From Candidatus Dadabacteria bacterium (lineage in GTDB: Bacteria; Desulfobacterota_D; UBA1144; Nemesobacterales; CSP1-2): 19,316 nt of DNA. The notes beneath the pieces are model-generated. The model was not told the DNA's origin. It saw nothing but the letters and a program-made list of their open reading frames with translations, and did not search any database. Numbering within the stretch: position 1 is the stretch's first letter; the number at the start of each line of letters is the position of its first letter. Positions 1 to 15,200 of the stretch are shown here, in pieces. The DNA lies in assembly GCA_040289575.1 (NCBI GenBank), contig PSLL01000006.1:94438-113753 (forward strand), given 5' to 3'. Both the position numbers and the translations under genes were made by a program.

Positions 1-536
1 ACGTAATACGGCACGATATTCAGACGACTAAGCAGACGAAAAGGCAGGACACTACGTAATGCGATAATCGGATTTGACAAATTATCAAGCGTGAGGAGCA
101 ATTGCCCGCCGACACGGAGCACCCGATAGAGCTCCTTGAGACTCGCAACGACTTCATCCGATAATTCGAAATGGTCTAACGTCGAATTGGAGATGATAAC
201 GTCAAATATTCCGTCGGCAAAGGGAAGACAACGCGCATCCGCTCCTGTTACCTGAAGGCCTCTGTGACGTGATTTTGCAGCCTGAATAGTCAATACAGAT
301 ATATCAATGCCAAAGACGTTTTTCGCCCGCATCACCATCAAAGGATACAGCCCATCCCCTAATGACTCATCGAATAAATCGGTTTTGAGAAGATTCTCTA
401 CCCTATCGGGCGGCAGCCAGCTTGCAAATACGGTAGTGTTAACCGCATCGTTATAGGCACGCCAGAGAGTTTGTGGACCCGTTTCCTGCCAGGTCTTGGC
501 AACTCTGTCCCAGTAGGAGGGCTTTTCTTGAAGCAA
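1..536 (-). CDS. Class I SAM-dependent methyltransferase (Methyltransf_11-like), 3' end beyond the window edge
   Basis: Not in the ORF track; translated by hand from TTG at 536 (GGGGAA 8 nt upstream): MLQEKPSYWDRVAKTWQETGPQTLWRAYNDAVN...LLKTDLFDESLGDG...VFGIDIS...GADARCLPFADGIFDVIISNSTLDHF...LKELYRVLRVGGQLLLTLDN. Frame is open to the edge. The GID, D..LPF.D..FD and E..RVL..GG motifs are typical of the family. Confidence 0.88.
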   Translation of the reverse strand, partial: MLQEKPSYWDRVAKTWQETGPQTLWRAYNDAVNTTVFASWLPPDRVENLLKTDLFDESLGDGLYPLMVMRAKNVFGIDISVLTIQAAKSRHRGLQVTGADARCLPFADGIFDVIISNSTLDHFELSDEVVASLKELYRVLRVGGQLLLTLDNLSNPIIALRSVLPFRLLSRLNIVPYY

Positions 537-580: not shown

Positions 581-2179
581 TTAATCCTGTCGCGCAAATA
601 ATCCCAGTGCCTTAATCACTTTTGTCTCAATCGGAAAGCGCATATCCATATATTTGATGCGGTAGCGCGCTACCGGGTGATACAATCTTCCTAAGGCGAC
701 CACGAGTGGGTTTGTCTTTTTATACGGAACTACGAAATGCCCCTTTCCCAAGAACATTAGGGGAAAATCCAATCCCTCTACGAGCCTCTTTGTCTCCGGA
801 GGGATCCATGGGGCTTCATCGGCGACACGCCGAAAGTTAAAACGCGCCCATTCCTCCAACCTTTGAGGTTCCTTAAGTCCGTGCTGGAGTGCAATGTGAT
901 ACAATTCGGTCCCGGGATAAGGAGTGTAGATATTGAAACTCTTGACCGCCCTTGGATTCTCATCAACTAGCCTTTCAGCCAAACGGACGCTCTGAATAAG
1001 CTCATCGGGGGTCTCAGTGGGCAGTCCCATCATGAACAGATAAACCGGAACAATGGGATGGGGAATTAGCTTTCGGCTTGCCTCGATAACCTCTTCGAGA
1101 TTTATATCCTTCTTTATTAAGTCCAGAATACGCTGAGAACCAGACTCTACCCCGATTGTAAGCCGTTTGACGCCGGCTCTGACCATGAGTTTAAGGAAAT
1201 CTTCATCCATCCTGCATATGGTGTCTGCACGAATTTGAAGTTTTCCAATGGTGATGTTGAGACCAGCGCGAACGATTTCCTCCAGGATGCCGTATGCACG
1301 CTTCATATCAATAAAGAAATGATCGTCTGTGAAGTTGAAACCCCTTATGCCGTAATCCCGGACTATCCGCTTTAAATGGTCTACCACAGTCTTTGGCTTC
1401 ATAGCCCTCCATTTTCTCTTATGGAGCACAGGGTCCCAACAAAAACTGCAACGAAACGTACAACCACGGCTGGAGTTGAAGCTGAAGACATCCGATTCGA
1501 AAAGATTCCGCCGATAATGGCTCATGTTAACCATATGATAGGAGAGCAGCGGCTGCTCATCCAGGTTAACAAAAGGACGTTCACCGGTCCAACGGATCTT
1601 ATAACCGCCATTAGAACTCACTGTGACCGGCTCGTTTTTCTCATGGGTTCCAAGAACAAGCAGACCCAAGGCGCTGTTGAGCTTGAACGCCTGGGCTGTA
1701 TCTGATTTACCATTGTTGTCGTTGATACGTTCTTTGTAGCATATGCCTTTTACCCGACTAAGAGGAGCACCAGACTCCAGGGCTTTAACCAGCTCCTCAA
1801 AGGTCTCCTCGCCCTCTCCTACAACTACTATATCCACATAGGGATTTACCAGTGTCTGCTCGGGCAGCAGGCTTGCGTGAATACCGCCCCATACAATAGG
1901 AACATCGGGATGACATTCTCTAAAAACCTTGCAGGCTTCCAGCGCACGAAGAATCTGAGGACCTGTCATACACGTCACCCCGAAGCAGATCGGCTTTTGT
2001 TTAATCGCCTCCATAAACTCCTTCTTCCAATCGGGATTTGCGAACTGATCAATGATTTTGATCTTATATCCCTGACGGTCTAGGGGAGTAGCAGGACAGA
2101 GAAGACTCAATGGAACCTCGACACGCCTTTGCGCCTGCCATCCGCTCCGAGGTGCGGGGTTAAATAATAGAACATCCAT
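581..2179 (-). CDS. Cobalamin (B12)-binding domain radical SAM protein (class B methyltransferase-like)
   Basis: N-terminal B12-binding domain (VPIVWGGIHAS...VDIVVVGEGEETF), SRGCTFRCSFC CxxxCxxC motif, FTDDHF, IGVESGSQRIL, GLPTET, TPYPGTELY. AAGGAG RBS 9 nt upstream of the ATG. Confidence 0.93.
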   Translation of the reverse strand: MDVLLFNPAPRSGWQAQRRVEVPLSLLCPATPLDRQGYKIKIIDQFANPDWKKEFMEAIKQKPICFGVTCMTGPQILRALEACKVFRECHPDVPIVWGGIHASLLPEQTLVNPYVDIVVVGEGEETFEELVKALESGAPLSRVKGICYKERINDNNGKSDTAQAFKLNSALGLLVLGTHEKNEPVTVSSNGGYKIRWTGERPFVNLDEQPLLSYHMVNMSHYRRNLFESDVFSFNSSRGCTFRCSFCWDPVLHKRKWRAMKPKTVVDHLKRIVRDYGIRGFNFTDDHFFIDMKRAYGILEEIVRAGLNITIGKLQIRADTICRMDEDFLKLMVRAGVKRLTIGVESGSQRILDLIKKDINLEEVIEASRKLIPHPIVPVYLFMMGLPTETPDELIQSVRLAERLVDENPRAVKSFNIYTPYPGTELYHIALQHGLKEPQRLEEWARFNFRRVADEAPWIPPETKRLVEGLDFPLMFLGKGHFVVPYKKTNPLVVALGRLYHPVARYRIKYMDMRFPIETKVIKALGLFARQD

Positions 2180-2281: not shown

Positions 2282-3235
2282 TCACAATTCGCTTAATTCT
2301 CTGTATGAATCAACGATCTTAGGATCAAAGGCTTCAAACAACTCTGGGTTTTCTAGATGACTGGGTGACTTATGAGAAAAGATATACTCTCCGACAACGG
2401 GAGCAAGTTTATATACCTCAACCCCACTCTCTTTTTCTACACCTTTGGACAATCGCCTCAATTCTTCTAATATTACCCCCGTATCAAATCCCTTTAGATG
2501 CAAAACTAAAACAACCTGCTCCAAAGAAGCATTGCCTGCTCTATCCCCAATTCCATTAATAGTTACATCAAGACCGTTGGCTCCAGAGTAAACGGCAGCC
2601 AGGGAATTTGCGGTTGCAAGCCCCAGGTCGTTATGTGCATGAAAAAATAGAACAACGTCTAAATATTCTTTTAACCGTTTAACTAAATCATAAACTGAAA
2701 ATGGATCCGAACCACCATTTGTATCGTAAATCGTCACCCTTTTGGCTCCACTCTTAACGGCTTCTTTACATATTTCTAATAAAAATTCAACTTCCGTTTG
2801 TGTAGAATGGGGGAAACCCACACCGACATCTGATCCGTATTGTAAGGAATAGGCAAGCATATCTAAAATAAGACCTATTTTAGCGTCCCTATCATAGGGT
2901 TTTCTTTTAGTGGAGACAGGCATCAAAAGATCAAACCTGTTTAAGTATTTACCTGACTCCTCTATTTCCTGCTGGCAATGAGGACTGTAAGAATATATCA
3001 GACCAGAAGTTTTTAATCTTAGTCCTTCTTCCTTCAGTCTTTTAACAAATTCTAAATCCTTAAGAACCCTACTTGGGGCTACAACTTCGATTTCTTGCAC
3101 ATTAGCCTTATCAAGCAACCTTGCTATATTTAATCTCTGCTCAGGCAAAAAACTCACATTTGGGACATCCAATCCCTCTCTTAGAGTGGAGTCTTTGATT
3201 ATTATCTTTCTAGAAGAAGTCTCCATAATAATCAC
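2282..3235 (-). CDS. DRE-TIM metallolyase, homocitrate/isopropylmalate-synthase-like, short and atypical
   Basis: IKDSTLREG, EIEV, IYDTNG, FHAHNDLGLATANSLAAV..GA, DVTINGIGDRAGNASLEQ, PVVGEYIFSH motifs. GTGA overlap with the stop of the upstream gene; the start could alternatively be the ATG three codons in. No C-terminal regulatory domain. Confidence 0.88.
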   Translation of the reverse strand: MIIMETSSRKIIIKDSTLREGLDVPNVSFLPEQRLNIARLLDKANVQEIEVVAPSRVLKDLEFVKRLKEEGLRLKTSGLIYSYSPHCQQEIEESGKYLNRFDLLMPVSTKRKPYDRDAKIGLILDMLAYSLQYGSDVGVGFPHSTQTEVEFLLEICKEAVKSGAKRVTIYDTNGGSDPFSVYDLVKRLKEYLDVVLFFHAHNDLGLATANSLAAVYSGANGLDVTINGIGDRAGNASLEQVVLVLHLKGFDTGVILEELRRLSKGVEKESGVEVYKLAPVVGEYIFSHKSPSHLENPELFEAFDPKIVDSYRELSEL

Positions 3236-4425
3236 CTATCAAAAACCATTTTACTGTAATTCTTTATCATGGTATCCAAACTGGGAATTCTATAGTCGGG
3301 TTTTGCTTTGCCATCTGCCTCACTCATCCCACTGGTTAAGCAGCAAAGCACCCTATTTCCCTTAGTTATTAGCCCGTTATCTATTTCTTTCAATGTTCCT
3401 GCCAGTGCAATCAAGCCGGTTTTTTCCTCTACTTCTCCATCAATTGATGTAATTTCAACCTCATTATACCGAAGTAAATCTAATATACCTCTTCCATCAA
3501 AGTCCCACTCCAAAAAGTCTCCAAACTCAGAGTGGTTTACTGTAGTTAGGTCTCCATTAGTACCTATAAGAACATCTGTCAGGTCCTTATAAGTCCCATA
3601 GGTATGGGGTTTAACATCATACATAACCTTTGTCAGCAACTGCTCGGTAGAATTTATTTCAGCTGGTTCTATTACTGTCTTCTTTGATTTCCAGGCCTTA
3701 TACATCGGACAGTTAGCCTCCTGCTGAATGCCCAAGAACCTAGGAATACGCCCTATTTCTTTGGTAAAATTCATTAAAACCCAATAAATCCCGATTGGAC
3801 CAAAGGCAGCGCTAATTGCTTGAGTCAACCAATCAAACTTTTTGCTTTCTTCTAACATATATTCCAAGATAAAAAAACCTCTAAATTTGGAAGCCTCATA
3901 ACGCCAGCCAGTTTGAGGAATATGTTTAAGCCCATTTGATCTTTCAAATAAATAGGCGGCCCTTTTAACCAGTTCGGGTTCTTCAACAGAGATTAAATGC
4001 GCTTTATAGGGTTCAAATACCCTGCTATTTAGCAATGGAATATTTTCCTCAGGAAGAAATAAAAATGTCTCTAATCCCACCCTCTGACCGTATTCTGTTA
4101 AAGCCGTGCCGGTATTTCCGCCGGATTCAAAAACGACCCTTTCATAACCTTTTAGTTTACATTTTGCTATGGTTATGCATCCATCAATTGATTTTAATGT
4201 CTTTGTATGCATCAGCGACGTTTCATCCAATATGTAAATCTTCACCCCTTTATATGTCAGTAATGGGAATATTCTCGCTCCTTCTCTAATGCTGGTTTTT
4301 TGCAACCACTCTTTATATCTTGAATCTTCTTCATCCGTCATTTCAAATTTGAATGCGTTCCTGTATCTAAGCACTATGCTCGTTTGAGGATCGTATTTCG
4401 TATCAATGCACTTATCAAGACTCAT
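3232..4425 (-). CDS. PLP-dependent fold-type II enzyme (threonine-synthase / cysteate-synthase-like)
   Basis: Schiff-base Lys motif HTKTLKSIDG, ESGGNTGTAL, QAISAAFGPIG, PRFLGIQQEANCPMYKAWK, TGLIALAG...VLCCLTSG. Start taken as the ATG at 4425, 1 nt after the nitroreductase TAA; the ORF-track start is 4440. Confidence 0.82.
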   Translation of the reverse strand: MSLDKCIDTKYDPQTSIVLRYRNAFKFEMTDEEDSRYKEWLQKTSIREGARIFPLLTYKGVKIYILDETSLMHTKTLKSIDGCITIAKCKLKGYERVVFESGGNTGTALTEYGQRVGLETFLFLPEENIPLLNSRVFEPYKAHLISVEEPELVKRAAYLFERSNGLKHIPQTGWRYEASKFRGFFILEYMLEESKKFDWLTQAISAAFGPIGIYWVLMNFTKEIGRIPRFLGIQQEANCPMYKAWKSKKTVIEPAEINSTEQLLTKVMYDVKPHTYGTYKDLTDVLIGTNGDLTTVNHSEFGDFLEWDFDGRGILDLLRYNEVEITSIDGEVEEKTGLIALAGTLKEIDNGLITKGNRVLCCLTSGMSEADGKAKPDYRIPSLDTMIKNYSKMVFDR

Positions 4426-4426
4426 C

Positions 4427-4969
4427 TTAGAATCTTTCATAATGGATCATTTCCTCTATAATTCTCAATTTCTTAGGTTCAAGGATTTCATCCGGATAGC
4501 CTAATGGAATTATTGTAATCGGGTCAACGTTTTCAGGAATACCCAAGATCTGCCTGATCTCCTCTGAAATCCTCGGTTCATCGGTTCTGTACGCAGATAG
4601 ATATACGCTCCCTAAACCCCTGCTGTATGCCCCCAAGATTATATTGACTGTAGCTAAGACCCCGTTTTCAATCTCTCGACCGTAGGATTTTTGTTTATCA
4701 ACGCAAACAACGATAATAACCGGAGCACATTTCATGAAATCGGCTTTGTAGCTCTGTTTCTCCGGCGGACAATACTTATTCTTGATTTCTATTATTCGTT
4801 TCTTTGTCTTATCCCCTCTAACAACAATAAAATGCCACGGCTGACCGTTCATCGATGAGGGTGCGTATCTAGCTAAATCAAGTAACTCTTCAATAACCGA
4901 GTCCGGTATATCAATTTGCTTGTATTTTCTAATAGCCCTTCTTCCTTTGATAGCTTCGTCTATTTCCAT
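4427..4969 (-). CDS. Nitroreductase family flavoprotein
   Basis: AIKGRRAIRKY, ARYAPSSMNGQPWHFIVV, APVIIVV, GLGSVYL, IIPLGYP. Start set at MEIDEAIK (4969) because the ORF-track extension to 5047 overlaps the remnant C-terminus of the upstream methyltransferase. Confidence 0.92.
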   Translation of the reverse strand: MEIDEAIKGRRAIRKYKQIDIPDSVIEELLDLARYAPSSMNGQPWHFIVVRGDKTKKRIIEIKNKYCPPEKQSYKADFMKCAPVIIVVCVDKQKSYGREIENGVLATVNIILGAYSRGLGSVYLSAYRTDEPRISEEIRQILGIPENVDPITIIPLGYPDEILEPKKLRIIEEMIHYERF

Positions 4970-4985: not shown

Positions 4986-5801
4986 TTAGACATCATAGCC
5001 GTAGCCAGATTCCGGTTTTTGAGCCAATACAATAATTGTATGACCAAATTATGACGTTATGGAAGACCTAGAAAGGAACCAAGCCTCACCTTTCATCAAC
5101 CAGTATAGCAGGGTATTTAGCCATTGCAGATGCATCTAGGGTCTTCTGTTGGGCAAACCTTGCCTATGATACACCTGATTTTTCCTATGTTTCAAGTATC
5201 GCCTGATAGTGGGAATAACAGACATCAATGCGTTGGCACAGGTTAATTTGAGGGTATGAAAGCCCGCCTCCAGAACCTTATCCCTCACCTCATCAGGACT
5301 GTACATTCTGTATTTCTCATCCACCGATTTTGCCCCTTTTCCTATTCCCTGGCTCGAATTCGTCAATAGTAAAAGGCAGCCGCCCGGCTTTAACACCCCA
5401 TAAAATTCCCTTAAAGCCGTTTTGTCGGATCCTTTCCTCGGCAGGTGTTGAATAACAGCCTTGCAGACGACCAGATCAAACAGACCGTTTTTAAATGACA
5501 GTTCCATTACGGAGGCCTGGGAAAGAAGGCGTTGTTCTCGCCTTCGACAAAATTGAAAGGCATGCCATGAAAGGTCTATTCCCACTGCTTGTTTGGGCAG
5601 GGTATATCGTTCCAGCCATGTGAGGGTGAACCCAGTGCCGCATCTCGCATCAAGGATGCTCAGATTCTTCATTCCACGGTAGTGGGAATTTAAGATTCTG
5701 GCGGCAACTTCATGTATGCCTATATACCACCAGTGTTTTTCCTCAACTTCATAAAGCCGTTCATAATACTCATAAGACCCTATCCGTGGATTCTTATGCA
5801 T
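4986..5801 (-). pseudogene. Class I SAM-dependent methyltransferase pseudogene (two in-frame stops)
   Basis: ORF 5801-5136 has EEKHWWY, ILDARCGTG (G>R in motif I), VGIDLS, FDLVVC, VLKPGG. The same frame continues past TAG (5136-5138) as MHLQWLNTLLYWLMKGEAWFLSRSSITS, then TAA (5049-5051), then FGHTIIVLAQKPESGYGYDV to TAA at 4986. This matches the usual WLN..L...EA...LPFG.S....A.K tail of such glycan-locus methyltransferases. Confidence 0.8.
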
Positions 5802-5848: not shown

Positions 5849-6184
5849 TCATTTCCTGAGATCAACGACCTTATTATAAATCCATCCAATCAGCGCTCCG
5901 CCAAAAGTGCCCACAGCAAAACCATAGAGAAATCCAATAACGCTTCCAAAAAACGTGACCCTGTATCCTATGAAGAACTGACTTAAGAGCCGTAAATGCG
6001 GTCCTACTACATAATCGCCACTTGGGGTTACATAACCGCCCTTGATTACAAGCCAGTTAGTTGCAATGAATATAGCCAGACCAAAAAGGATACCAAGAAT
6101 TAACCCCAGTACCTTGGCATTTAACCGCACTACAGCACTTAAAAGCTTCTGTTCCTCCTCTGGCCAATCCGTACCTCCCCCCAC
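5849..6184 (-). CDS. Small integral membrane protein, paralogous to the C-terminal domain of the upstream oxidoreductase
   Basis: Two long hydrophobic Gly-rich segments flank VGPHLRLLSQFFIGYRVT. GTG at 6184 has GGAGGT 6 nt upstream; the ORF-track TTG start is 6199. Confidence 0.8.
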   Translation of the reverse strand: MGGGTDWPEEEQKLLSAVVRLNAKVLGLILGILFGLAIFIATNWLVIKGGYVTPSGDYVVGPHLRLLSQFFIGYRVTFFGSVIGFLYGFAVGTFGGALIGWIYNKVVDLRK

Positions 6185-6212
6185 TTTATTACCTCCCAAG
6201 TACTAAGACATA

Positions 6213-8093
6213 TTAGATATAATCTAAAAAGTCCCTAAGGGATAGAGATTCTGCTTTCTTTCTAGCCCTGTATATGAATATGCCAACAGAGAGATTTCTA
6301 AGATACGCAAACAGCCACCCCCAAATAAATCCCCAAAGAAAACTATAACCCACTCCGATAAAGGCCCCCTTCACAGTTACCGTATATCCTATAAAATATT
6401 GCCCCAAAAGTTGCAGATTCGGACCCAATACCTCACTGTTTCTTATAATCAACCAGAGTGTTGATATAAAAATGGCTAAGCCACAAACCGATCCGACGGC
6501 AATAGCAAAGGCCAATTTGTCCATCCTGGCAAAAGCCTGTATAATGGCTTCATCGGGATCACACCGTCGAGATTTCACCAGACTTCGCTCAGGAACACGT
6601 GGCTGTATAGAGACAAGAGAATCAAATTCATTGCGTCTTGTTCTCTTATCCTCCCTTATCTCTTCATGATATTCCTGATCGGCATTTACCTGCCAGAGAT
6701 CATAATTCGCGCCCAAAATGTTTTTAACTGCCAACATCGCCGTCAGCATTGAGTGATCCTGATTGTTGTACTTATGCATACCATTTCGGCCCACAAGCTG
6801 AAGGTTATATATAGGGCTAATAAACTCGCTTATAACCTTGAGTGAATCACGATATGTAGAATCATAGACGGGATAAGCCTTTGGCATTCTTACAACAGTT
6901 CCATCCTCAACATCGGAGGCATGAGCCAATCCTAATATCTCCAATTCCCTTTTTCCAAGCTCAATTAGCTCCCTGTCCGACATCGTCCACAGTCCATCCC
7001 CTTCAAAGCAGAAATACTCAAGCCCTAAGCATGTCTTGTTTTGGTCTGGAACCATATATGGACTCCAGTTCTTGAAATTCTGAATCCTGCCCACCTTCAC
7101 GTCTGGGTCGTGTATATAAATCCAGTTATCAGGAAACACCCCCGTATTGTTAACAACGAGGACCACTGTAAGAAAATCCCTGTAATTAAGGTTCATCGCC
7201 GCCCGGAACACCTCCTCCGGTACAGGAGGGTCGAATTTTTGGATTAACTCCCTGATTGGCATAGTACTGATAAAATGGGTTCCTTTAACTAGTTCTCTTC
7301 CTCCATTGGTTTTTATCTCCACCGCATCTACCTTTCGGTCTTTACAGATAATTCTTTCGACCTCGGCTCCTATGCGGATTTCACCGTTACTGCCTTTTAT
7401 TATATTAGCCACCCTCTCCCACATCATTCCCGGCCCCAACTTAGGGTAGTAAAAGGAATCAATAAGGGTTTTGATAACACCACCTTTATCACGAGAATTT
7501 TGTCCCTTCAATAGGGCATTTCTAATAGCGGTTAAAAGGGAAAGTCCTTTAATTCTCTGCGCCGCCCATTCAGCCATGATTTCACTACACTTTATTCCCC
7601 AAACCTTTTCCGTATAAGTCTTAAAGAAGATCTTGTAAAGGTGTTCTCCGAAACGATTTGAGACCCACTCTTCAAATGTTTCTTCCGGCCTTTTTGGAAA
7701 AAGTTGGGCATTAATGTAGCTAAAGAGGATAATAAGGCTATTCCAAATCCCTAAACCGAGTATGGCATTGGAGACGCGGAGCGGATAATAAAAGAATCTC
7801 TTGTTATAGTATATTCGCGACAGGCGATCGCGCTTGATAAAATCATCACCCAGTACCTCGTGCCACATATCCTCCACAGCCTTAACCTTTGTAAAAAAGC
7901 GGTGTCCGCCTATATCAAAATAGTAGTCCTTATAATTAACCGTCCTTGCAAGTCCACCGACAATATTATCCTTCTCGATGACAACAGACTTGACCCCCGC
8001 CTTGCACAATTCATAGGCGGCTGTAAGACCGGCGGGACCCGCACCTATTATTACTACTCTCTTGCTATCAGGTGTTTCAATAAACTCTTGCAT
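6213..8093 (-). CDS. NAD(P)/FAD-dependent oxidoreductase (PRK07208 / COG1232 protoporphyrinogen-oxidase- and UDP-galactopyranose-mutase-like fold) fused to a C-terminal membrane domain
   Basis: VVIIGAGPAGLTAAYEL Rossmann motif, VGGLART, FDIGGHRFF, FFKTYTEKVWG, WAAQRIKGLSL, FPDNWIY, GRNGMHKYNNQDHSMLTAM. The last ~115 aa are hydrophobic. Confidence 0.9.
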   Translation of the reverse strand: MQEFIETPDSKRVVIIGAGPAGLTAAYELCKAGVKSVVIEKDNIVGGLARTVNYKDYYFDIGGHRFFTKVKAVEDMWHEVLGDDFIKRDRLSRIYYNKRFFYYPLRVSNAILGLGIWNSLIILFSYINAQLFPKRPEETFEEWVSNRFGEHLYKIFFKTYTEKVWGIKCSEIMAEWAAQRIKGLSLLTAIRNALLKGQNSRDKGGVIKTLIDSFYYPKLGPGMMWERVANIIKGSNGEIRIGAEVERIICKDRKVDAVEIKTNGGRELVKGTHFISTMPIRELIQKFDPPVPEEVFRAAMNLNYRDFLTVVLVVNNTGVFPDNWIYIHDPDVKVGRIQNFKNWSPYMVPDQNKTCLGLEYFCFEGDGLWTMSDRELIELGKRELEILGLAHASDVEDGTVVRMPKAYPVYDSTYRDSLKVISEFISPIYNLQLVGRNGMHKYNNQDHSMLTAMLAVKNILGANYDLWQVNADQEYHEEIREDKRTRRNEFDSLVSIQPRVPERSLVKSRRCDPDEAIIQAFARMDKLAFAIAVGSVCGLAIFISTLWLIIRNSEVLGPNLQLLGQYFIGYTVTVKGAFIGVGYSFLWGFIWGWLFAYLRNLSVGIFIYRARKKAESLSLRDFLDYI

Positions 8094-8383: not shown

Positions 8384-10477
8384 CTATCTGACCTCAAACT
8401 TTACAGAGTCAACAATACAGTTTTTCTTATCTACAAGCGATAGTATATATTTGCCTTTTCTCGGTTGCCATGGGATTCTCGCAGAAGTGCCTACCGTTTG
8501 ATTGTTTAAAACCCATCTGAAATCAATATCAGAATTCTGGGCCTCAGCCTCAAAAAAGAGCATCTGCCGATCTTCGGGGATGTCCGGGTCCAGAGCAACT
8601 ATAGTCCCGGTCGGCGGGTATGTAATATGGATATTTCTGTGATCCGTATTTAGCTCTATTGAACCCGGCTCTGTGCCCTGTATAAACCACTCGATTCTTC
8701 CAGGCTCTATATGATGCTCAAATTCAATCCTCTTTGACATCACCCCTTTGGGTGGTTGTGGGGGAATACTGGTGCTGTTACGATGGAGATAGTTCATTAT
8801 ATCAAGCCATAGAGGGGCGGCTCCTGTTATGCCGGTGACATTCCACATCGGCTCGCCAGTGAAATTCCCAACCCAAACACCTACAGTATAACTCTGTGAA
8901 TACCCAATGCACCAGTTATCTCTCATGTCCTTGCTCGTTCCGGTTTTAGCTGCGGTCCAGGATCGCGTGGATATTGGATTTTCAAATCCGAATGTAATGC
9001 TCCTTGCCCCCCTGTCCGAAAGGATATTTGAAATTATGAATGCGGCTTCGGCTTTCATAACCCGTTCTGGCACATTCCTCTTATTAAAAGTCAATCTCGG
9101 CTCGCTACACACCCCGCCATTGGCCAGTGTTCTGTATGCGTTTACAAGCTCATAGAGGCTTATATCGGCAGAGCCGAGTGCAAGCGAGAAACCATAGTAG
9201 TCCCCAGATTCATCAACGTTTTCAAATCCCAGTTCTCTTAGTCTCGTAACAAAAGGCTCCTCCCCAACCAGCATCAGAGTTCTTACGGCGGGAACATTGA
9301 GAGATGATGAAAGGGCAGTTCTGACACTCACAAGGCCCCTGAATTCATTATCATAGTCCCGCGGTATATAAAGCCCGGCGGGAGTCGGTATGTCTAGCGG
9401 GGAATCGTCTATTACGGATGCCGCTGTAATCAGGCGCCTTTCAATCGCAAGTTCATATAAAAAAGGCTTGAGTGTCGAGCCTGCCTGCCTTCTCGCTCTA
9501 ATTCCATCTACATATCTCACACTAGAAGACGCCCCGCTATTTGCAACGTAGGCGAGTATGTCCCCGGTTTTATTGTCCATAACGAGGATTGCCCCATCGT
9601 GGACGTTTTGATTTTTCAGGAGGCTGAGTTGGTATTTCAAGGCCTCGGTTGCAAACCTCTGGAGCTTTCCATCAATGGTTGAAACGACCTTTTCACCCTC
9701 CCTTTTCAATAACTCTCGTGCAACGTGAGGCGCAAGTGCAATGTGGGGCTTTATGTAATAGGGGCCTGAGAGTTTTTGAGCAATGCTCTTTATGTCTTCA
9801 CACCGGGTTTGTGATTTAAGGGAGTCTCCAAGGGTGCATGCCCTCCTTATTACATCGCCAACTTGAGCATTTGGCGAGCGAATTAAGGAGGCAAGTACAA
9901 GAGATTCCGACTCATCGAGTCCGCTTGGCTCTTTATCAAAAATCCCTCTCGAGACAGACGATATGCCTTGAAGCTCTCCTCTAAATGTCGTCAGATTGAG
10001 ATACGCCTCAATTATCTCATCCTTAGACCAAATTTTTTCAATCTCCCATGCGGCTTTTATCTGCCCCCATTTTTGGCTAAGAGTTCTTTTTGCATCCCTT
10101 GGCTTTAACCCCTTATCGAGAATTGACACAAGCTGCATTGTTATTGTGCTCGCACCCCTATCGCCCTTCGATAGGAGTCTATCAAAGACGGCGGCTATTA
10201 CTGCCCTCCAGTCAACGCCGTGGTGCTCATAAAATCTCCTATCCTCCGAATGAATAACGGCCCTGATTAAAGACGGAGATATATCTTTGAGACTTACCCA
10301 ATCGAGCCTTCTCCCCTTTTCATCAACCCTGAGTTCGTGTATAACCTCTCCATGACGATCCAGAAGAACCGCGTCGGATTTCTTATAAGAGTTTTTAACC
10401 TCATCAAACGTGGGCAGGGCATGGGCGTGGGTTGTGAAGAGAAAGGAGGTTATTAGGATGAATAATAAAAACTTCAT
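8384..10477 (-). CDS. pbpC: Penicillin-binding protein 1C
   Basis: N-terminal hydrophobic segment; transglycosylase motifs EDRRFYEHHGVD and GASTITMQL; transpeptidase motifs GSTLKPF (SxxK), SLNVPA (SxN), AAKTGTS; PBP1C-type C-terminal domain (ITYPPTG...WVLN...WQPRKG...VKFEVR). Linked to an alpha-2-macroglobulin gene. Confidence 0.95.
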   Translation of the reverse strand: MKFLLFILITSFLFTTHAHALPTFDEVKNSYKKSDAVLLDRHGEVIHELRVDEKGRRLDWVSLKDISPSLIRAVIHSEDRRFYEHHGVDWRAVIAAVFDRLLSKGDRGASTITMQLVSILDKGLKPRDAKRTLSQKWGQIKAAWEIEKIWSKDEIIEAYLNLTTFRGELQGISSVSRGIFDKEPSGLDESESLVLASLIRSPNAQVGDVIRRACTLGDSLKSQTRCEDIKSIAQKLSGPYYIKPHIALAPHVARELLKREGEKVVSTIDGKLQRFATEALKYQLSLLKNQNVHDGAILVMDNKTGDILAYVANSGASSSVRYVDGIRARRQAGSTLKPFLYELAIERRLITAASVIDDSPLDIPTPAGLYIPRDYDNEFRGLVSVRTALSSSLNVPAVRTLMLVGEEPFVTRLRELGFENVDESGDYYGFSLALGSADISLYELVNAYRTLANGGVCSEPRLTFNKRNVPERVMKAEAAFIISNILSDRGARSITFGFENPISTRSWTAAKTGTSKDMRDNWCIGYSQSYTVGVWVGNFTGEPMWNVTGITGAAPLWLDIMNYLHRNSTSIPPQPPKGVMSKRIEFEHHIEPGRIEWFIQGTEPGSIELNTDHRNIHITYPPTGTIVALDPDIPEDRQMLFFEAEAQNSDIDFRWVLNNQTVGTSARIPWQPRKGKYILSLVDKKNCIVDSVKFEVR

Positions 10478-10508
10478 GAGATAAATCTGACCACCTTTTT
10501 ATAACTTT

Positions 10509-11298
10509 TTATAAAATGACTGTTTTCTTACATGTGTTACCCATGTTCGGTAGTTTTATAGAAAAGGGGTGTCTGTCTTTAACCTTTTGGATAGCTTCAA
10601 ATAAACTGGGAAGACTGCAAATTACCTGCCGTGCTGCCGGATAGGGAGTTGTTAACACTAGCCGCTCTTCTGACTCGAAAATTTCTATTGCCTTTAATTT
10701 CCCACCGGGGAATGAATGTATGGATGGGCTGTTTAGTCCTAAACGATAGGTTACCCACCATGCCGGATCAGATCCCTGAGTAATTATTAGGTTGGGTTCT
10801 AGGCATCTGATTTCTTCGAGAAGATGGTTAGAACAATTACTTCGCATTTGGGGTGTGGATGAGCTCCACATATGGCCACATTTTACACTGTTTGTTAAGG
10901 CAAACTGATTAGCAAATTTAGAAGGGTCTTTTGTATCTTCCCTAACTAATTCCTTCATAATGAGATGAGCCCCACACATGTGAGGGTTTGAGGGGTTTAT
11001 AACATTTTCGCGCCAAACTCTTTGGTAATCTTCAAAACGTTGCTCCTCTGAATATTCTTCTCCTTCTCCCCTGTCCATAGCAACAAACATTATTTTTATC
11101 TTTTTGCCTGATATGCAAGCCTCACCATAGTCCACTCCAATATATGGCCAATCACCTGTGCGGTCTGGAACAGCTCTTCTGTTCACAGCTATAATAGTTA
11201 CATTTAAACTCCCTTTTGAATGTTGGAGTTATTCCCAGAGCGTTATATAAATTTATTATGGATTTTCTGTAATTTGTCATTTGCAAATCAATATCCAT
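10509..11298 (-). pseudogene. Uracil-DNA glycosylase superfamily protein, probably split by a +1 frameshift near the 5' end
   Basis: ORF 11186-10509 has WPYIGVDY, IMFVAMD, FALTNSVKC, NCSNHLLEEIRCLEPNLIITQG, TPYPAAR (UDG-fold motifs). A 48-codon ORF 11298-11152 (MDIDLQMTNYRKSIINLYNALGITPTFKREFKCNYYSCEQKSCSRPHR) follows a GGGAGGAG RBS and overlaps it in another frame. Confidence 0.62.
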
Positions 11299-11359
11299 AG
11301 TTAATTTGGTTTCTCCTCCCTGCTCCCATTATCTAACAAAGATGAAACTTTTTGCAATA

Positions 11360-11421
11360 GTGTGTGATTTATTGAATCAATATTTAGTTCAAATGAGCAA
11401 TTGATGTTTGCAATCACACAC
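11360..11421. repeat. Inverted repeat / imperfect hairpin between the PIN toxin and the UDG-like gene
   Basis: GTGTGTGATT (11360-11369) pairs with AATCACACAC (11412-11421); inner ATCAAT (11376-11381) pairs with ATTGAT (11400-11405). Confidence 0.55.
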
Positions 11422-11467
11422 GACCTTGTTACCTAAACAATCACTATAACTCTCATTTTTACTACAT

Positions 11468-11881
11468 TTAACCCTCGGTGTTTATAACCTTCAGAAAATC
11501 GGCAACACTTAGGATGGCTATTCCCTGATACTCTCGTAGAGCCAAAAGGTCAAAGTCACCCGTCACGATGTACTTTGCATTACCATCTAGTGCGCACTCG
11601 ATCACCCGGTTATCATCCTCGTCCCGACAAACACTGACTTTGCTTATTGGTAAGATGACGTCTGAAATAACACGAACGGATGAGACTATGCGGTCCGCTT
11701 CCGATGCTGTCAAATGAAATGGCTTATCCTCCCCAGTAAGTATATCTTTCAACTCACTCAAAAGAACCTCAGAGGTGACTGAAGTTATTTCCCCGCGGCG
11801 TGCTTTATTGAGAAGAATCTTAGGCTTACCAGACCAGAAGATTCCTGAGATTAAAGCGTTGGTGTCAATCACTACCCTCAT
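11468..11881 (-). CDS. PIN-domain (PIN_3, VapC-like) toxin of a type II toxin-antitoxin system
   Basis: MRVVIDTNALISG, LLSELKDIL, CRDEDDNRVIECAL, IVTGDFDLL acidic PIN motifs. ATGA overlap with the upstream small gene. Confidence 0.92.
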   Translation of the reverse strand: MRVVIDTNALISGIFWSGKPKILLNKARRGEITSVTSEVLLSELKDILTGEDKPFHLTASEADRIVSSVRVISDVILPISKVSVCRDEDDNRVIECALDGNAKYIVTGDFDLLALREYQGIAILSVADFLKVINTEG

Positions 11882-12117
11882 CTACTGGCGCTCCTATGCG
11901 CCTTCACAATCTGTGCCACATCCTCCTCAGTCAGGTGGTTAAAGCCCCTTTTTTTTGCCAGGTTAACAGCCCATTCATCAAACTCAATCCATTTTATTAC
12001 CGAGTCCTTAGATTCAACAAACTCGATAAAGTCAACCACTTCTTGCTTTTTCTCAGGTGATAGCCTTCGAAAAATATTGAGAATCTTGTTCTCTAAGCTC
12101 TTTTCTGCCTTCCCCAT
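11878..12117 (-). CDS. Putative antitoxin (DUF2281-like)
   Basis: LSPEKKQEVVDFIEFVESK (DUF2281-like) and AKKRG..LTEEDVAQIV tail. Sits directly upstream of and overlaps the PIN gene. ATG at 12117 follows AGGAGG; the ORF-track TTG start is 12147. Confidence 0.75.
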   Translation of the reverse strand: MGKAEKSLENKILNIFRRLSPEKKQEVVDFIEFVESKDSVIKWIEFDEWAVNLAKKRGFNHLTEEDVAQIVKAHRSASR

Positions 12118-12201
12118 GTGCTTAAATTGCCTCCTATTGCTACTCAAAGCTTATCCGATTTGCCAAGGATTTCAAAGGCTTCTTATCCACCCGAATAATA
12201 C

Positions 12202-15200
12202 CTAAGGCTCAACGGTTATCTTATCATTCGGCCTCTCTCCCAACATCTCAGGGGAATAGAGAGCCTCGACCCTTGTTGGAGGCATATTAAACACCCCCTC
12301 GTTATTGAGCCTGATAGTGTATTCAACAGTCCATTTTCCTTTCGGCACATATTCATAATATGACCTGAATGCCTCAAATGTGCGCTCCTCAAATGCAGGC
12401 CATACCCACCCTTTCCTCTTTTCGCCGCTTGTTAAAAGCTCCGAGTCTCTTCCAAGCCCGGTCCCTAGAATAGTTGACCCCGCGGGTATTGGATCGTTTA
12501 CAACAACCCATGTCATATCGGATCGCGACTCAATTTCAAGCTGAATCCTGACCACATCTCCCCTGCTCCATTTTCCCCGTAATTTTTGTTCTATAGATAT
12601 TAGAGTTTTTTTAATCGTATATCCGCTTGAGAAGGGTTCTTTAAGCGGAATTGAGGCAAGGCTCTGCACGGTAGCCCAGGGTTTCCCCTTGCCATTATGT
12701 GTGATGGTCAATTTCTCTTTTGCCTCCGGCCAATTAAACATAAAGCCTTCTCCATCGGGGGATTTAGTCCAATCAACAGTCTCTACCCTTTTGCCCAATT
12801 CGGAAATCGTAGAGCCTGTCATGGGAACGGATTCAAATTTTTGTGAGAATCTCTCCATTGCGATCATCCCCCATGCGTTTGCAACCGTCGTATCCCAATG
12901 CCCCTGATTTAGCCTTCCTATCACGCCCCTTGCCATTCTAGGAATGTCCTCTTTCCAGCTCTCAAATGAAATCAGAGTTAATAGACCCTTTACAGCATTC
13001 TCATCGTCTGAGACCATAAGCCACCAGAAGTAATCCGTCCTCTCGGTTGAAAAACCAATTACAGTCCCCTGAAGATTGAGCCGCGACCTTATTATCTGCT
13101 CCGCCTCTTTGAGTTTTCTATCGCGATTCGGAATGCCTTTAATCCTCAAAAGCACATTTATCCAATCTATCACGGCTGATGTGGGCCATACATTAGGCTC
13201 TACAGAGATGGAACTCAATAGGTTCATATTGCCCCTTCCATTGCGTAAAAGCGCATCCAGCGCAGCCATCTTCCTTATTGAAAGGTCGGCGGTAGGCAAA
13301 GACGAATATCTGATGACTCTTCCTTCAATGAATCCCATCAGCCCGTCCATCATCCGGTTTTTTATATCGAATGGAATCTCATATTTAGACTCATTGGAGA
13401 TTGAGAGAATATAAGAGGTTAGTACATCGCTCCCTGAGTCCATTTTTGGAAAGTATTTTACAAGCCCGTCCGAATCAAGATATGAGGGCATCTCAGACAT
13501 AATCTTTTTCCACAACGCTTCATCCCTTAGCGCAATAGCCTTTGAAACCTTCTGCTCCATACATATATACGGATAACGCTCCATATACCACCTAACCCCG
13601 CCCAATCCGTTTGAGAGTTTAGGTCTGATTGAGATATTAATCCTGCCTTTACCTGAAATCGAATCCTCGGGTTTTTTAATGTCAACACTGAAGCTCTTGT
13701 CAATTTGCGTGAGGGTGGACTGAAAAACCCTTATAGGAATTGATTCAATCAGCTTCTCCGTAACCCTGATATTATCCTCCGCCCCGCCGTCTTTATCCCT
13801 CGCCATGACCTCGTATATCATTTTATCGGCGCCATACGGGGCTGTAATCTCCCATCCGATCTCCTTTGCTTCACCCGGCTGCAGAGGCTCATTAATTGCC
13901 GGAAGCCCTTTAATACCCATAATGTTTCCCCTGACCTCTACATCCATCTTGCGGTCCGATGCATTTCTAACCGTAAATCCGGCTTTAAACCTGTCCCCCT
14001 CTCTCACAATCGGCGGAATCCCCGAGAGAACCATCAAGTCCTGTGTTGTCCTTACACTCGTCTCCCCTGTGCCGAATAGTCCTAGGCTTCCGTTTGTAAT
14101 CGCCACAATTCTAAACCCCGTCAGTGAATCATTAAGAGGAATCTCCACATAGGCCTCGCCTTTTTCATTTAATGGCACGCGCGCCCTCCAGAATAGGAGC
14201 GTGTCAAACAACTCACGTGTTATATGCCTTCCACCACCTCCTCCCTGAGGCAATGCCTTCAGTCCATAATGTCTCTTTCCCACCACCTGCATCTGGGCGG
14301 TGGATGTTCTAATCTCATATCCCCTCCTTCCCATCATCGCGTCAAGGAGTTTCCAGCTATCGTTGGGCGAGAGTTCAAGAAGCCCCTCATCAACCGCTGC
14401 AACTGCCACCTCACTCCCCTTTGGCAGAATCCCTCCAAAGGCTGTTTTTACCTCTATCTTAACTTTTATCTTCTCCCTTATTTTATAGACGCTTTTATCC
14501 GTAGAGACCTTTACCTTTAACTCATGTGCCCTCCATCCAATGTTGATCTCCGCGATTCCAAGCTTGTAAGCGGGCTTTCCAAGATCAACCAATGCCGTAG
14601 GCTGAATGCCTCCGACTCTGCCCCGCACAACAAGGACCGAAACAAAAACATTTGGCGCATAATTTTCCTTGACCGGAATCTCTATTACAGGCTCTTTTCC
14701 TGAGAGCTTCTTAATTGATGCCTCTATTATGCCCTCGCGCTCAATGGTTATAAGCGCATTAGCCTCCCTAAACGGCATCCTCACCTGAAACTTCGCCGTC
14801 TCTCCTGGCTCATATCTCCTTTTCTCAGGCAGAATGTCAATCCTATCGTTGTCAGAGGCATTGAACCACCACTCACCCTCCCCTGAAATCCAAACATCTC
14901 TGTTAGCAAAAGAAATGTTTCCTGCATCGTCTACAGCTCTGGCTTGAAGAATAACATTTCCTGAAACGGGCGATTTTGATGCACAGATTAAAAGACCCTT
15001 CCCATCCGTCTTTCCTTCACATATAGAGCCAAGCCGTTTTATCTCTATTACATTTTCATAGGAATAGAACCCTCCCACGAGCCTTTTTCTATGTGAGTAG
15101 TACTTTCTCTCAAGAATGTCTACACCTACAGACCTGTTCGGAACGGGCTTGCCCTGCATATCAAGAACGACTACCTGGAATCTAAATGAATCCCTCGACG

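Follow-up and report, generated by a model that had tools for sequence, protein, structure and literature searches.

The stretch analysed here, hereafter the window, comprises 19,316 nucleotides of contig PSLL01000006.1 (positions 94,438 to 113,753 of the forward strand; assembly GCA_040289575.1) from a Candidatus Dadabacteria bacterium. The minus strand carries every gene in its first 18 kb. Three adjoining genes among these are the subject of this study, and encode, in the order in which they are read, a nitroreductase-family flavin mononucleotide (FMN) enzyme, a pyridoxal 5'-phosphate (PLP) enzyme and a DRE-TIM enzyme.

4427..4969, minus strand: nitroreductase-family FMN enzyme, 180 aa from the conserved ATG (PF00881)
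3232..4440, minus strand: ThrC/cysteate-synthase-like PLP enzyme, 402 aa, of a distinct uncharacterised family (PF00291 and fold)
2282..3235, minus strand: short DRE-TIM (HMGL-like) enzyme, 317 aa, homocitrate/isopropylmalate-synthase-like (PF00682)

A sequence-only reading of the window had described these genes as a translationally coupled trio. The two junctions that it gave are exact on the reverse complement: TAA-G-ATG at 4429-4423 between the nitroreductase and PLP genes (TAAGATG, the reverse complement of 4423-4429), and GTGA at 3235-3232 between the PLP and DRE-TIM genes (the reverse complement of 3232-3235). The PLP frame has a second opening at ATG 4440, giving a 14-nt overlap with the end of the nitroreductase gene. 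This ATG is more likely than that at 4425 to be the true start, because a 14-nt overlap is the commonest arrangement in related loci and the N-terminus is conserved in the PLP alignment. The two genes are coupled whichever of the starts is used. The DRE-TIM gene also has two possible starts, GTG 3235 or ATG 3226. The nitroreductase frame stays open as far as TTG 5047, and the start conserved in homologues is ATG 4969, which is M27 of the long open reading frame (ORF) and agrees with the start proposed earlier.

The PLP protein has 626 matches in 90% clusters, many of them at 63–83% identity. Only 288 of 1.84 billion representatives match it at E <= 0.001, and the family is therefore regarded as small and sharply separated. 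A genome scan found 52 loci, all in metagenome-assembled genomes (MAGs) and spread over at least 10 phylum-level groups, with the labels Thermodesulfobacteriota, "delta proteobacterium", Myxococcota, Acidobacteriota, Nitrospirota, Latescibacteria, Rhodothermales, Krumholzibacteriia, Gemmatimonadales, Binatia, Planctomycetota and Dadabacteria. When the PLP and DRE-TIM pair was sought in these other genomes it was found co-conserved with the nitroreductase, and the order nitroreductase, PLP enzyme, DRE-TIM enzyme on the same strand was present in 45 of the 48 loci having enough flanking DNA. The exceptions are loci with truncated or degenerate copies. According to heuristic start estimates, the nitroreductase and PLP genes overlap in 38 of 39 loci, with 14 nt the commonest length, and the PLP–DRE-TIM junction is overlapping or at most 10 nt apart in 38 of 40. 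These results support the trio as a conserved unit with translational coupling, separate from the ThrC and LeuA/NifV of housekeeping metabolism. A plasmid collection contained no homologue of the PLP enzyme, and a full-text literature search for the enzyme combination or DUF6002 returned no description of the cassette.

Among 40 relatives the PLP gene is intact in 2, is a pseudogene with six stops in a third and gives a borderline match (E 9.7e-4) in a fourth. A dead copy of the gene from a same-family relative (L004/L006; G009:C6:285209-286349) contains five TGA stops and one TAG. The cassette of another Dadabacteria MAG (L054) is rearranged, with a degenerate 317-aa PLP gene (41% identity) and an inverted pair of DRE-TIM and radical SAM genes (70% and 81% identity to the window; SAM, S-adenosylmethionine) about 9 kb away from it.

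The PLP enzyme belongs to fold type II (PF00291, 46.1 bits; gathering cut-off 35). Cysteate synthase (TIGR03844) is its best NCBIfam match, at 48.3 bits against a cut-off of 324.9. It scores 20.6 bits on ThrC (TIGR00260; cut-off 167.1) and 20–43 bits on threonine synthase models generally (cut-offs 167–303). In an alignment of 16 family members, with a mean column identity of 73%, K83 is invariant; it corresponds to the PLP lysine of ThrC, as the SGGNTG and WRY motifs do to STGNTS and YRIEG. Because the lysine and both motifs align in this way, a phosphorylated amino acid is suggested as the substrate. Sequence matches in the PDB are ThrC only (E about 1e-6 to 1e-7), plus one borderline aspartate racemase. 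An AF2 model built from a 71-sequence alignment (mean predicted local distance difference test score, pLDDT, 94.6) has as its top structural match CapA2 (9k3c), described as the Alistipes cysteate synthase of sulfonolipid/capnine synthesis, with Z 33.9, a root-mean-square deviation of 2.9 and 359 of 402 residues aligned. Threonine synthases come next (Z 31–33, about 314 residues), and TrpB and threonine deaminases rank lower. The enzyme has, by the CapA2 match and K83, the ThrC-derived PLP fold with its Schiff-base lysine. Among ESM Atlas language-model clusters ranked by features, the third is named "cysteate synthase" (score 0.91). The profile matches, the fold and the language-model neighbours thus all support a ThrC/cysteate-synthase likeness, in line with the cysteate-synthase-like enzyme proposed from the sequence.

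Compared with known systems, cysteate synthases (archaeal TIGR03844, bacterial CapA) share with the cassette enzyme the ThrC-derived type II fold over nearly the full length and the PLP lysine, and their link to O-phosphoserine is paralleled by a SerC paralogue in one cassette (see below). They differ in that identity is only about 18% and the family score is far below the cut-off. In addition, the cassette enzyme always has a nitroreductase and a DRE-TIM enzyme as its partners, an association that to our knowledge is not found for the cysteate synthases of the coenzyme M and capnine pathways. ThrC likewise has the fold and the aligned motifs in common with the cassette enzyme, but on sequence the match is poor, and CapA2 gives the better coverage of the family-specific N-terminal segment of the cassette enzyme. 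No longer, fused form turned up when one was sought for the PLP enzyme itself. In P0216, P0219, P0221 and P0228 an acyl-CoA-dehydrogenase (ACAD) domain is joined, in fusions that look real, to distant relatives of the PLP domain (27–31% identity), and because of these fusions a flavoenzyme partner seems to be a deeper trait of this PLP clade. The four are rare metagenomic proteins of about 750 aa, for which a cluster look-up supplied no name. A metagenome scan with the ACAD–PLP fusion alignment yielded 80 loci, all of them plain acyl-CoA dehydrogenases lacking the PLP part, and in a plasmid search with the fusions the dehydrogenase half alone was matched. Two apparent nitroreductase–PLP fusions (P0155 and P0201) were left out of the count: both have long stretches rich in Arg and Ala, which resemble frame errors in high-GC DNA.

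The DRE-TIM enzyme scores 174.7 bits on PF00682 (gathering cut-off 29). It falls below both of the synthase families nearest to it, with 214.6 bits for NifV (TIGR02660; cut-off 462.9) and 219.7 for LeuA (NF002085; cut-off 517). At 317 aa it covers positions 10–322 of a 504-position model and is without the LeuA-type C-terminal regulatory domain; the match to synthase models comprises the barrel and the first post-barrel subdomain only. Within this region the R-E, HxH and HxSxxH positions are kept relative to homocitrate synthase (6ktq) and are conserved in 44 family members. The core of the homocitrate/isopropylmalate synthase type is thus kept, in support of the earlier DRE-TIM reading. The family has motifs of its own, REGLD and GVGFPH. 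The 6ktq alignment puts a Gly in place of the V-R-F strand Arg, the residue with which homocitrate synthase binds the distal carboxylate. Judged from the kept positions and from the GLD and GFPHxTQ motifs, which replace GEQ and xEDxxR of homocitrate synthase, the Claisen machinery looks retained and the substrate pocket altered. The enzyme shares the barrel, the first post-barrel subdomain and the catalytic positions with NifV, LeuA and CimA, and its proposed role, condensing acetyl-CoA with an unusual 2-oxoacid, has a parallel in FrbC and PmmS. It differs from all of these in its short length, the missing regulatory domain and the GLD and GFPHxTQ motifs, and in a genome with no phosphoenolpyruvate (PEP) mutase above cut-off.

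The nitroreductase scores 92.6 bits on PF00881 (gathering cut-off 23.5) and 65.7 bits on BluB (TIGR02476), below the cut-off of 150. The motifs RRxxR and PSSxNGQPW are kept in 35 homologues.

Genes neighbouring the cassette were compared by ORF clustering over 55 sources. Two partner sets were found that are mutually exclusive: 24 sources are of type A, 18 of type B and none has both. In type A a B12 radical SAM gene directly follows the DRE-TIM gene (18 of the 55 sources), together with a class I methyltransferase (22 sources), a SPASM radical SAM gene (8) and a Glu/Leu/Phe/Val-type dehydrogenase that is most like glutamate dehydrogenase (17, including the present genome). These loci often lie amid glycosyltransferases of families GT2 and GT4, Wzx-type flippases, a PRK07208-type flavin adenine dinucleotide (FAD) oxidoreductase, and PaaK/CapK-like and MurF-like ligases. 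Five type-A loci have SsuA/TauBC-like ABC transporter genes, which score below the family cut-offs. The present genome is of type A, and two of the partners lie at the start of the window:

581..2179, minus strand: B12-binding radical SAM enzyme, 532 aa, type-A partner directly after the trio (PF02310 and PF04055)
1..536, minus strand: class I SAM methyltransferase (MTa), type-A partner, cut by the end of the window (Pfam)

Past MTa there follow the dehydrogenase, GT2, GT2, GT4, a Stealth fragment, GT10, GT4, a sulfotransferase and Wzm.

In type B the DRE-TIM gene is followed by a protein resembling a nonribosomal peptide synthetase (NRPS), with adenylation, thiolation and thioesterase domains (A-T-TE) or with A-T only. 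In two loci (L013 and L050) the A-T protein is followed by a C-A-T-TE module (C, condensation), and in L013 an ABC exporter comes next. When 22 A domains were aligned, all 18 that are linked to the cassette had T/V-[AG]-Q or Y-[LM]-H at the position of the F-D motif, whereas F-D is kept in gramicidin synthetase and in four extender or separate modules. The Asp of this motif (A4) binds the alpha-amino group of the substrate in NRPS A domains. Because it is missing from all 18 cassette-linked domains, the type-B substrate is probably not an alpha-amino acid. The type-B partner resembles non-amino-acid-activating NRPS-like A-T-TE enzymes both in its domains and in lacking F-D; it differs in being fixed beside the trio and in feeding a C-A-T-TE module in two loci.

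Single loci carry further genes. In a complete Nitrospirales chromosome a second SerC gene (L018:11124-12305; 461 bits, cut-off 253) is inserted between the PLP and DRE-TIM genes, and its product is 45% identical to that of the genome's other serC. In L051 the DRE-TIM gene is followed by one for an ICL/PrpB-like lyase, which reaches 67.9 bits against the PEP mutase model. Sulfotransferases adjoin the cassette in L040, L055 and L058, and a fusion with adenosine 5'-phosphosulfate (APS) kinase is present in L037. The conserved neighbours of the cassette include neither an isomerase nor a dehydrogenase of chain elongation. Two neighbours were set aside as clues: the homoserine kinase near L050 is encoded by that genome's only thrB, which probably stands there by chance, and the aconitase beside L048 resembles AcnA and probably has a housekeeping role.

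A quick, unrooted tree of the PLP proteins groups them by partner set: type B needs 6 changes, and none of 500 shuffles was as low. Phyla are intermingled in the tree (Binatus with Terriglobales, for instance), a pattern suggestive of the transfer of whole cassettes.

Taken together, these observations are best explained if the trio is a conserved, co-translated module that makes an unusual carboxylic acid building block. We give this reading, with the scheme that follows, a probability of about 0.5. The unit, its partners and its family assignments are observed, and from them we infer the substrates, the step order and what the flavoenzyme does. The scheme would begin with the PLP enzyme taking a phosphorylated amino acid, with O-phosphoserine favoured, and exchanging the phosphate for a nucleophile to give a non-protein alpha-amino acid. 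This amino acid would be converted to the 2-oxoacid by the nitroreductase-fold flavoenzyme, by the Glu/Leu-type dehydrogenase or by a transaminase. The DRE-TIM enzyme would then condense acetyl-CoA onto the 2-oxoacid, giving a 2-substituted malate-type acid without an alpha-amino group. In type A the product would be tailored by the B12 radical SAM methylase, the methyltransferase and the amino-acid dehydrogenase within a surface-glycan locus, and in type B it would be adenylated and loaded by the dedicated NRPS-like A-T(-TE) enzyme. A logic of beta-replacement, oxoacid formation and carbon–carbon condensation had already been proposed from the window, and gains support from the dehydrogenase in 17 sources, the single SerC insertion and the A domain of non-amino-acid type. 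The product is probably an unusual organic acid destined for surface sugars or small peptides. A coupled module of three enzymes in at least 10 phylum-level groups, seen only in uncultured bacteria, points to a widespread unseen metabolite; its identification would give names to three enzyme families together and could bring to light a new acidic decoration on the cell surfaces of bacteria from soil and sediment. With its small size, the module lends itself to direct expression and assay.

Several points weigh against this reading. The GEQ of homocitrate synthase is replaced in the DRE-TIM family by GLD and xEDxxR by GFPHxTQ, and given these changes the enzyme may use different substrates or act as a lyase or aldolase. 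The order of the genes, with the flavoenzyme first, disagrees with the proposed order of steps. SerC is inserted in only 1 of the 52 loci, and could serve either to supply O-phosphoserine or to transaminate a phosphoserine-like product. The three enzyme families are without a characterised member, and the ACAD–PLP fusions hint at a flavin–PLP chemistry that the scheme leaves unexplained. Finally, both methyltransferases that flank the trio in the present genome look damaged, and the local pathway may be decaying.

The most specific version of the scheme that the data allow, and one that we hold only tentatively, is a sulfonate pathway drawn by analogy, as the sequence-only reading had proposed. 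O-phosphoserine and sulfite would give cysteate, then 3-sulfopyruvate by a flavin-dependent or dehydrogenase step, and condensation with acetyl-CoA would give 2-(sulfomethyl)malate, so that the route would mirror, with carbon–sulfur chemistry, the FrbC/PmmS step known from phosphonate biosynthesis. The cassette product would then belong to a new class of sulfonated or otherwise anion-substituted alkylmalates, a doubtful but not far-fetched outcome. If it were so, many uncultured phyla would decorate surface glycans (after B12-dependent C-methylation) or cap small nonribosomal products with an alkylmalate. The best NCBIfam match, the top structural match over 359 of 402 residues and the third-ranked ESM Atlas cluster of the PLP enzyme all lead to cysteate synthase, but the family score is just 48 bits against a cut-off of 325 and CapA2 and ThrC are tied within about 1 Z. 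The SerC paralogue inside one cassette points the same way. The sulfur-related neighbours and the transporters are compatible with a sulfonate: SsuA/TauBC-like genes, sulfotransferases beside three cassettes and in the adjoining glycan locus of the present genome, and the APS-kinase fusion. However, the transporter genes occur in only 5 of 52 loci, and sulfotransferases make sulfate esters from 3'-phosphoadenosine 5'-phosphosulfate, not sulfonates, and are common in glycan loci. This version also leaves the flavoenzyme without a role. An alternative is that the PLP enzyme keeps the substrate of ThrC, O-phosphohomoserine, with gamma- or beta-replacement or elimination to a four-carbon amino or oxo acid (e.g., a 2-oxobutyrate derivative or glutamate analogue) that the DRE-TIM enzyme would extend. 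ThrC structures match as well as CapA2 (Z 32–33), and the PDB sequence matches are all ThrC bar the one racemase. The best matches of the DRE-TIM enzyme are homocitrate synthases and those of the dehydrogenase are glutamate dehydrogenases, which would suit a 2-oxoglutarate-like intermediate. We nevertheless consider this rather unlikely: the only dedicated supply-type gene found is SerC and not ThrB, the homoserine kinase near L050 being probably a chance neighbour, and Gly replaces the V-R-F Arg that in homocitrate synthase holds the distal carboxylate.

The altered motifs of the DRE-TIM enzyme also bear on whether it is a synthase at all. It might instead be an aldolase or lyase in the style of DmpG or HMG-CoA lyase (HMG, 3-hydroxy-3-methylglutaryl), joining pyruvate to an aldehyde or ketone, after which the dehydrogenase would aminate the 4-hydroxy-2-oxoacid product, and the resulting hydroxylated amino acid, C-methylated later on, would go into the glycan. 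REGLD has Leu after Gly, unlike the Glu or Asn of synthases, and the RDGLQ motif of HMG-CoA lyase has Leu there too; the canonical xEDxxR strand is lost, 4-hydroxy-2-oxovalerate aldolase models match at 1e-25 to 1e-30, and a dehydrogenase like glutamate dehydrogenase together with a B12 methylase would fit the tailoring of an amino acid. Synthase models, however, match far better (1e-63 to 1e-65) and do so through the post-barrel subdomain including HxSxxH, and the type-B A domain is not of the amino-acid type, which makes this version unlikely. A pathway to a phosphonate or phosphinate like those of FrbC/PmmS and PhpK, with which the trio had been compared from the sequence, stands as an analogy only and is very improbable as an explanation. 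In its favour are the analogous enzyme types and weak matches of the radical SAM enzyme to P-methyltransferase families, but the 83 bits of that enzyme on PhpK (TIGR04479) lie far below the cut-off of 600, and all other named NCBIfam families were also below cut-off for it. The best PEP mutase match in the genome reaches 121.7 bits (cut-off 319.55). PEP mutase is also missing among the conserved cassette neighbours, and the single ICL-family neighbour, in L051, is PrpB-like. Automatic pipelines label many members of the PLP family "threonine synthase", as would be expected if housekeeping paralogues of ThrC and LeuA/NifV stood by chance beside a generic nitroreductase. We regard this reading as practically excluded, because the family scores are low and the genome has true housekeeping genes at other sites: two for ThrC above cut-off (277 and 216 bits), neither of them the cassette gene, and a 515-aa LeuA-like gene. 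In addition, the PLP gene is intact in only 2 of 40 relatives and the order of the three genes is fixed across phyla. The finding that would have spoken against the sequence-only reading, ordinary ThrC, LeuA or NifV proteins that are not co-conserved as a unit, was accordingly not made.

As to origin, the trio is a compositional outlier in this genome. Its GC content is 38.9%, against 44.2% for the 3.06-Mb genome, which places it at the 3.3rd percentile of 2.7-kb genome windows. GC at third codon positions (GC3) is 0.32–0.43 in the trio and 0.50–0.51 in the flanking radical SAM and methyltransferase genes. The AT-richness noticed earlier is thus borne out by both measures, and the six lines whose G+C had been counted by hand were all exact (14, 19, 17, 28, 28 and 28). 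Across loci the GC3 of the cassette tracks that of the host, ranging from 0.33 to 0.88. The difference between trio and partner genes here, -0.137, is the largest of 39 loci with partner genes (mean -0.026), and fits a locally more recent or mosaic origin. This deviant composition is in line with the suggestion of an acquired cassette; the changes in the methyltransferase upstream, which had also been invoked, are compatible with decay. That methyltransferase, a promoter-like site inside it and the genes beyond it are as follows:

5166..5195, minus strand: promoter-like site upstream of the trio, within the 3' end of MTb (TTGAAA-18-TATCAT, by consensus match only, 10 of 12)
5136..5801, minus strand: upstream methyltransferase (MTb), probably degenerate (by comparison with its homologue)
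5849..8093, minus strand: FAD oxidoreductase (PRK07208 type; NF005548, 712 bits) with a membrane tail, and a small membrane protein

MTb reads ILDARCGTG where its only homologue (G003) reads ILDAGCGTG, a Gly-to-Arg change at the first Gly of the SAM-binding loop. It is also 44 aa shorter than the homologue, and the missing residues are C-terminal. Both changes are consistent with the earlier description of a dead methyltransferase, while decay itself is unproven. MTa is frameshifted just past the window (L060:12177-12974), with homologues matching residues ~1–195 in frame -1 and ~190–277 in frame -2, and is a pseudogene unless the assembly is in error there. The genes of the trio are intact, as are the radical SAM and dehydrogenase genes. 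The radical SAM gene had been credited with a -10 box of its own; TATAAT is indeed present at 2208-2203, but a consensus scan gave no matching -35 at that site. An Rfam search of the whole window (E <= 0.1) produced no match.

The membrane tail of the FAD oxidoreductase resembles the adjoining small membrane protein, and both have weak holin_4 matches. Upstream of the cassette, the oxidoreductase gene recurs in 7 sources and that of the small protein in 6. Farther along the window, at 8384-17901, the customary pair of genes for an alpha-2-macroglobulin (1899 aa) and PBP1C is split by a PIN toxin, which has a small upstream partner gene (11468-12147), and by a gene resembling uracil-DNA glycosylase (10509-11186).

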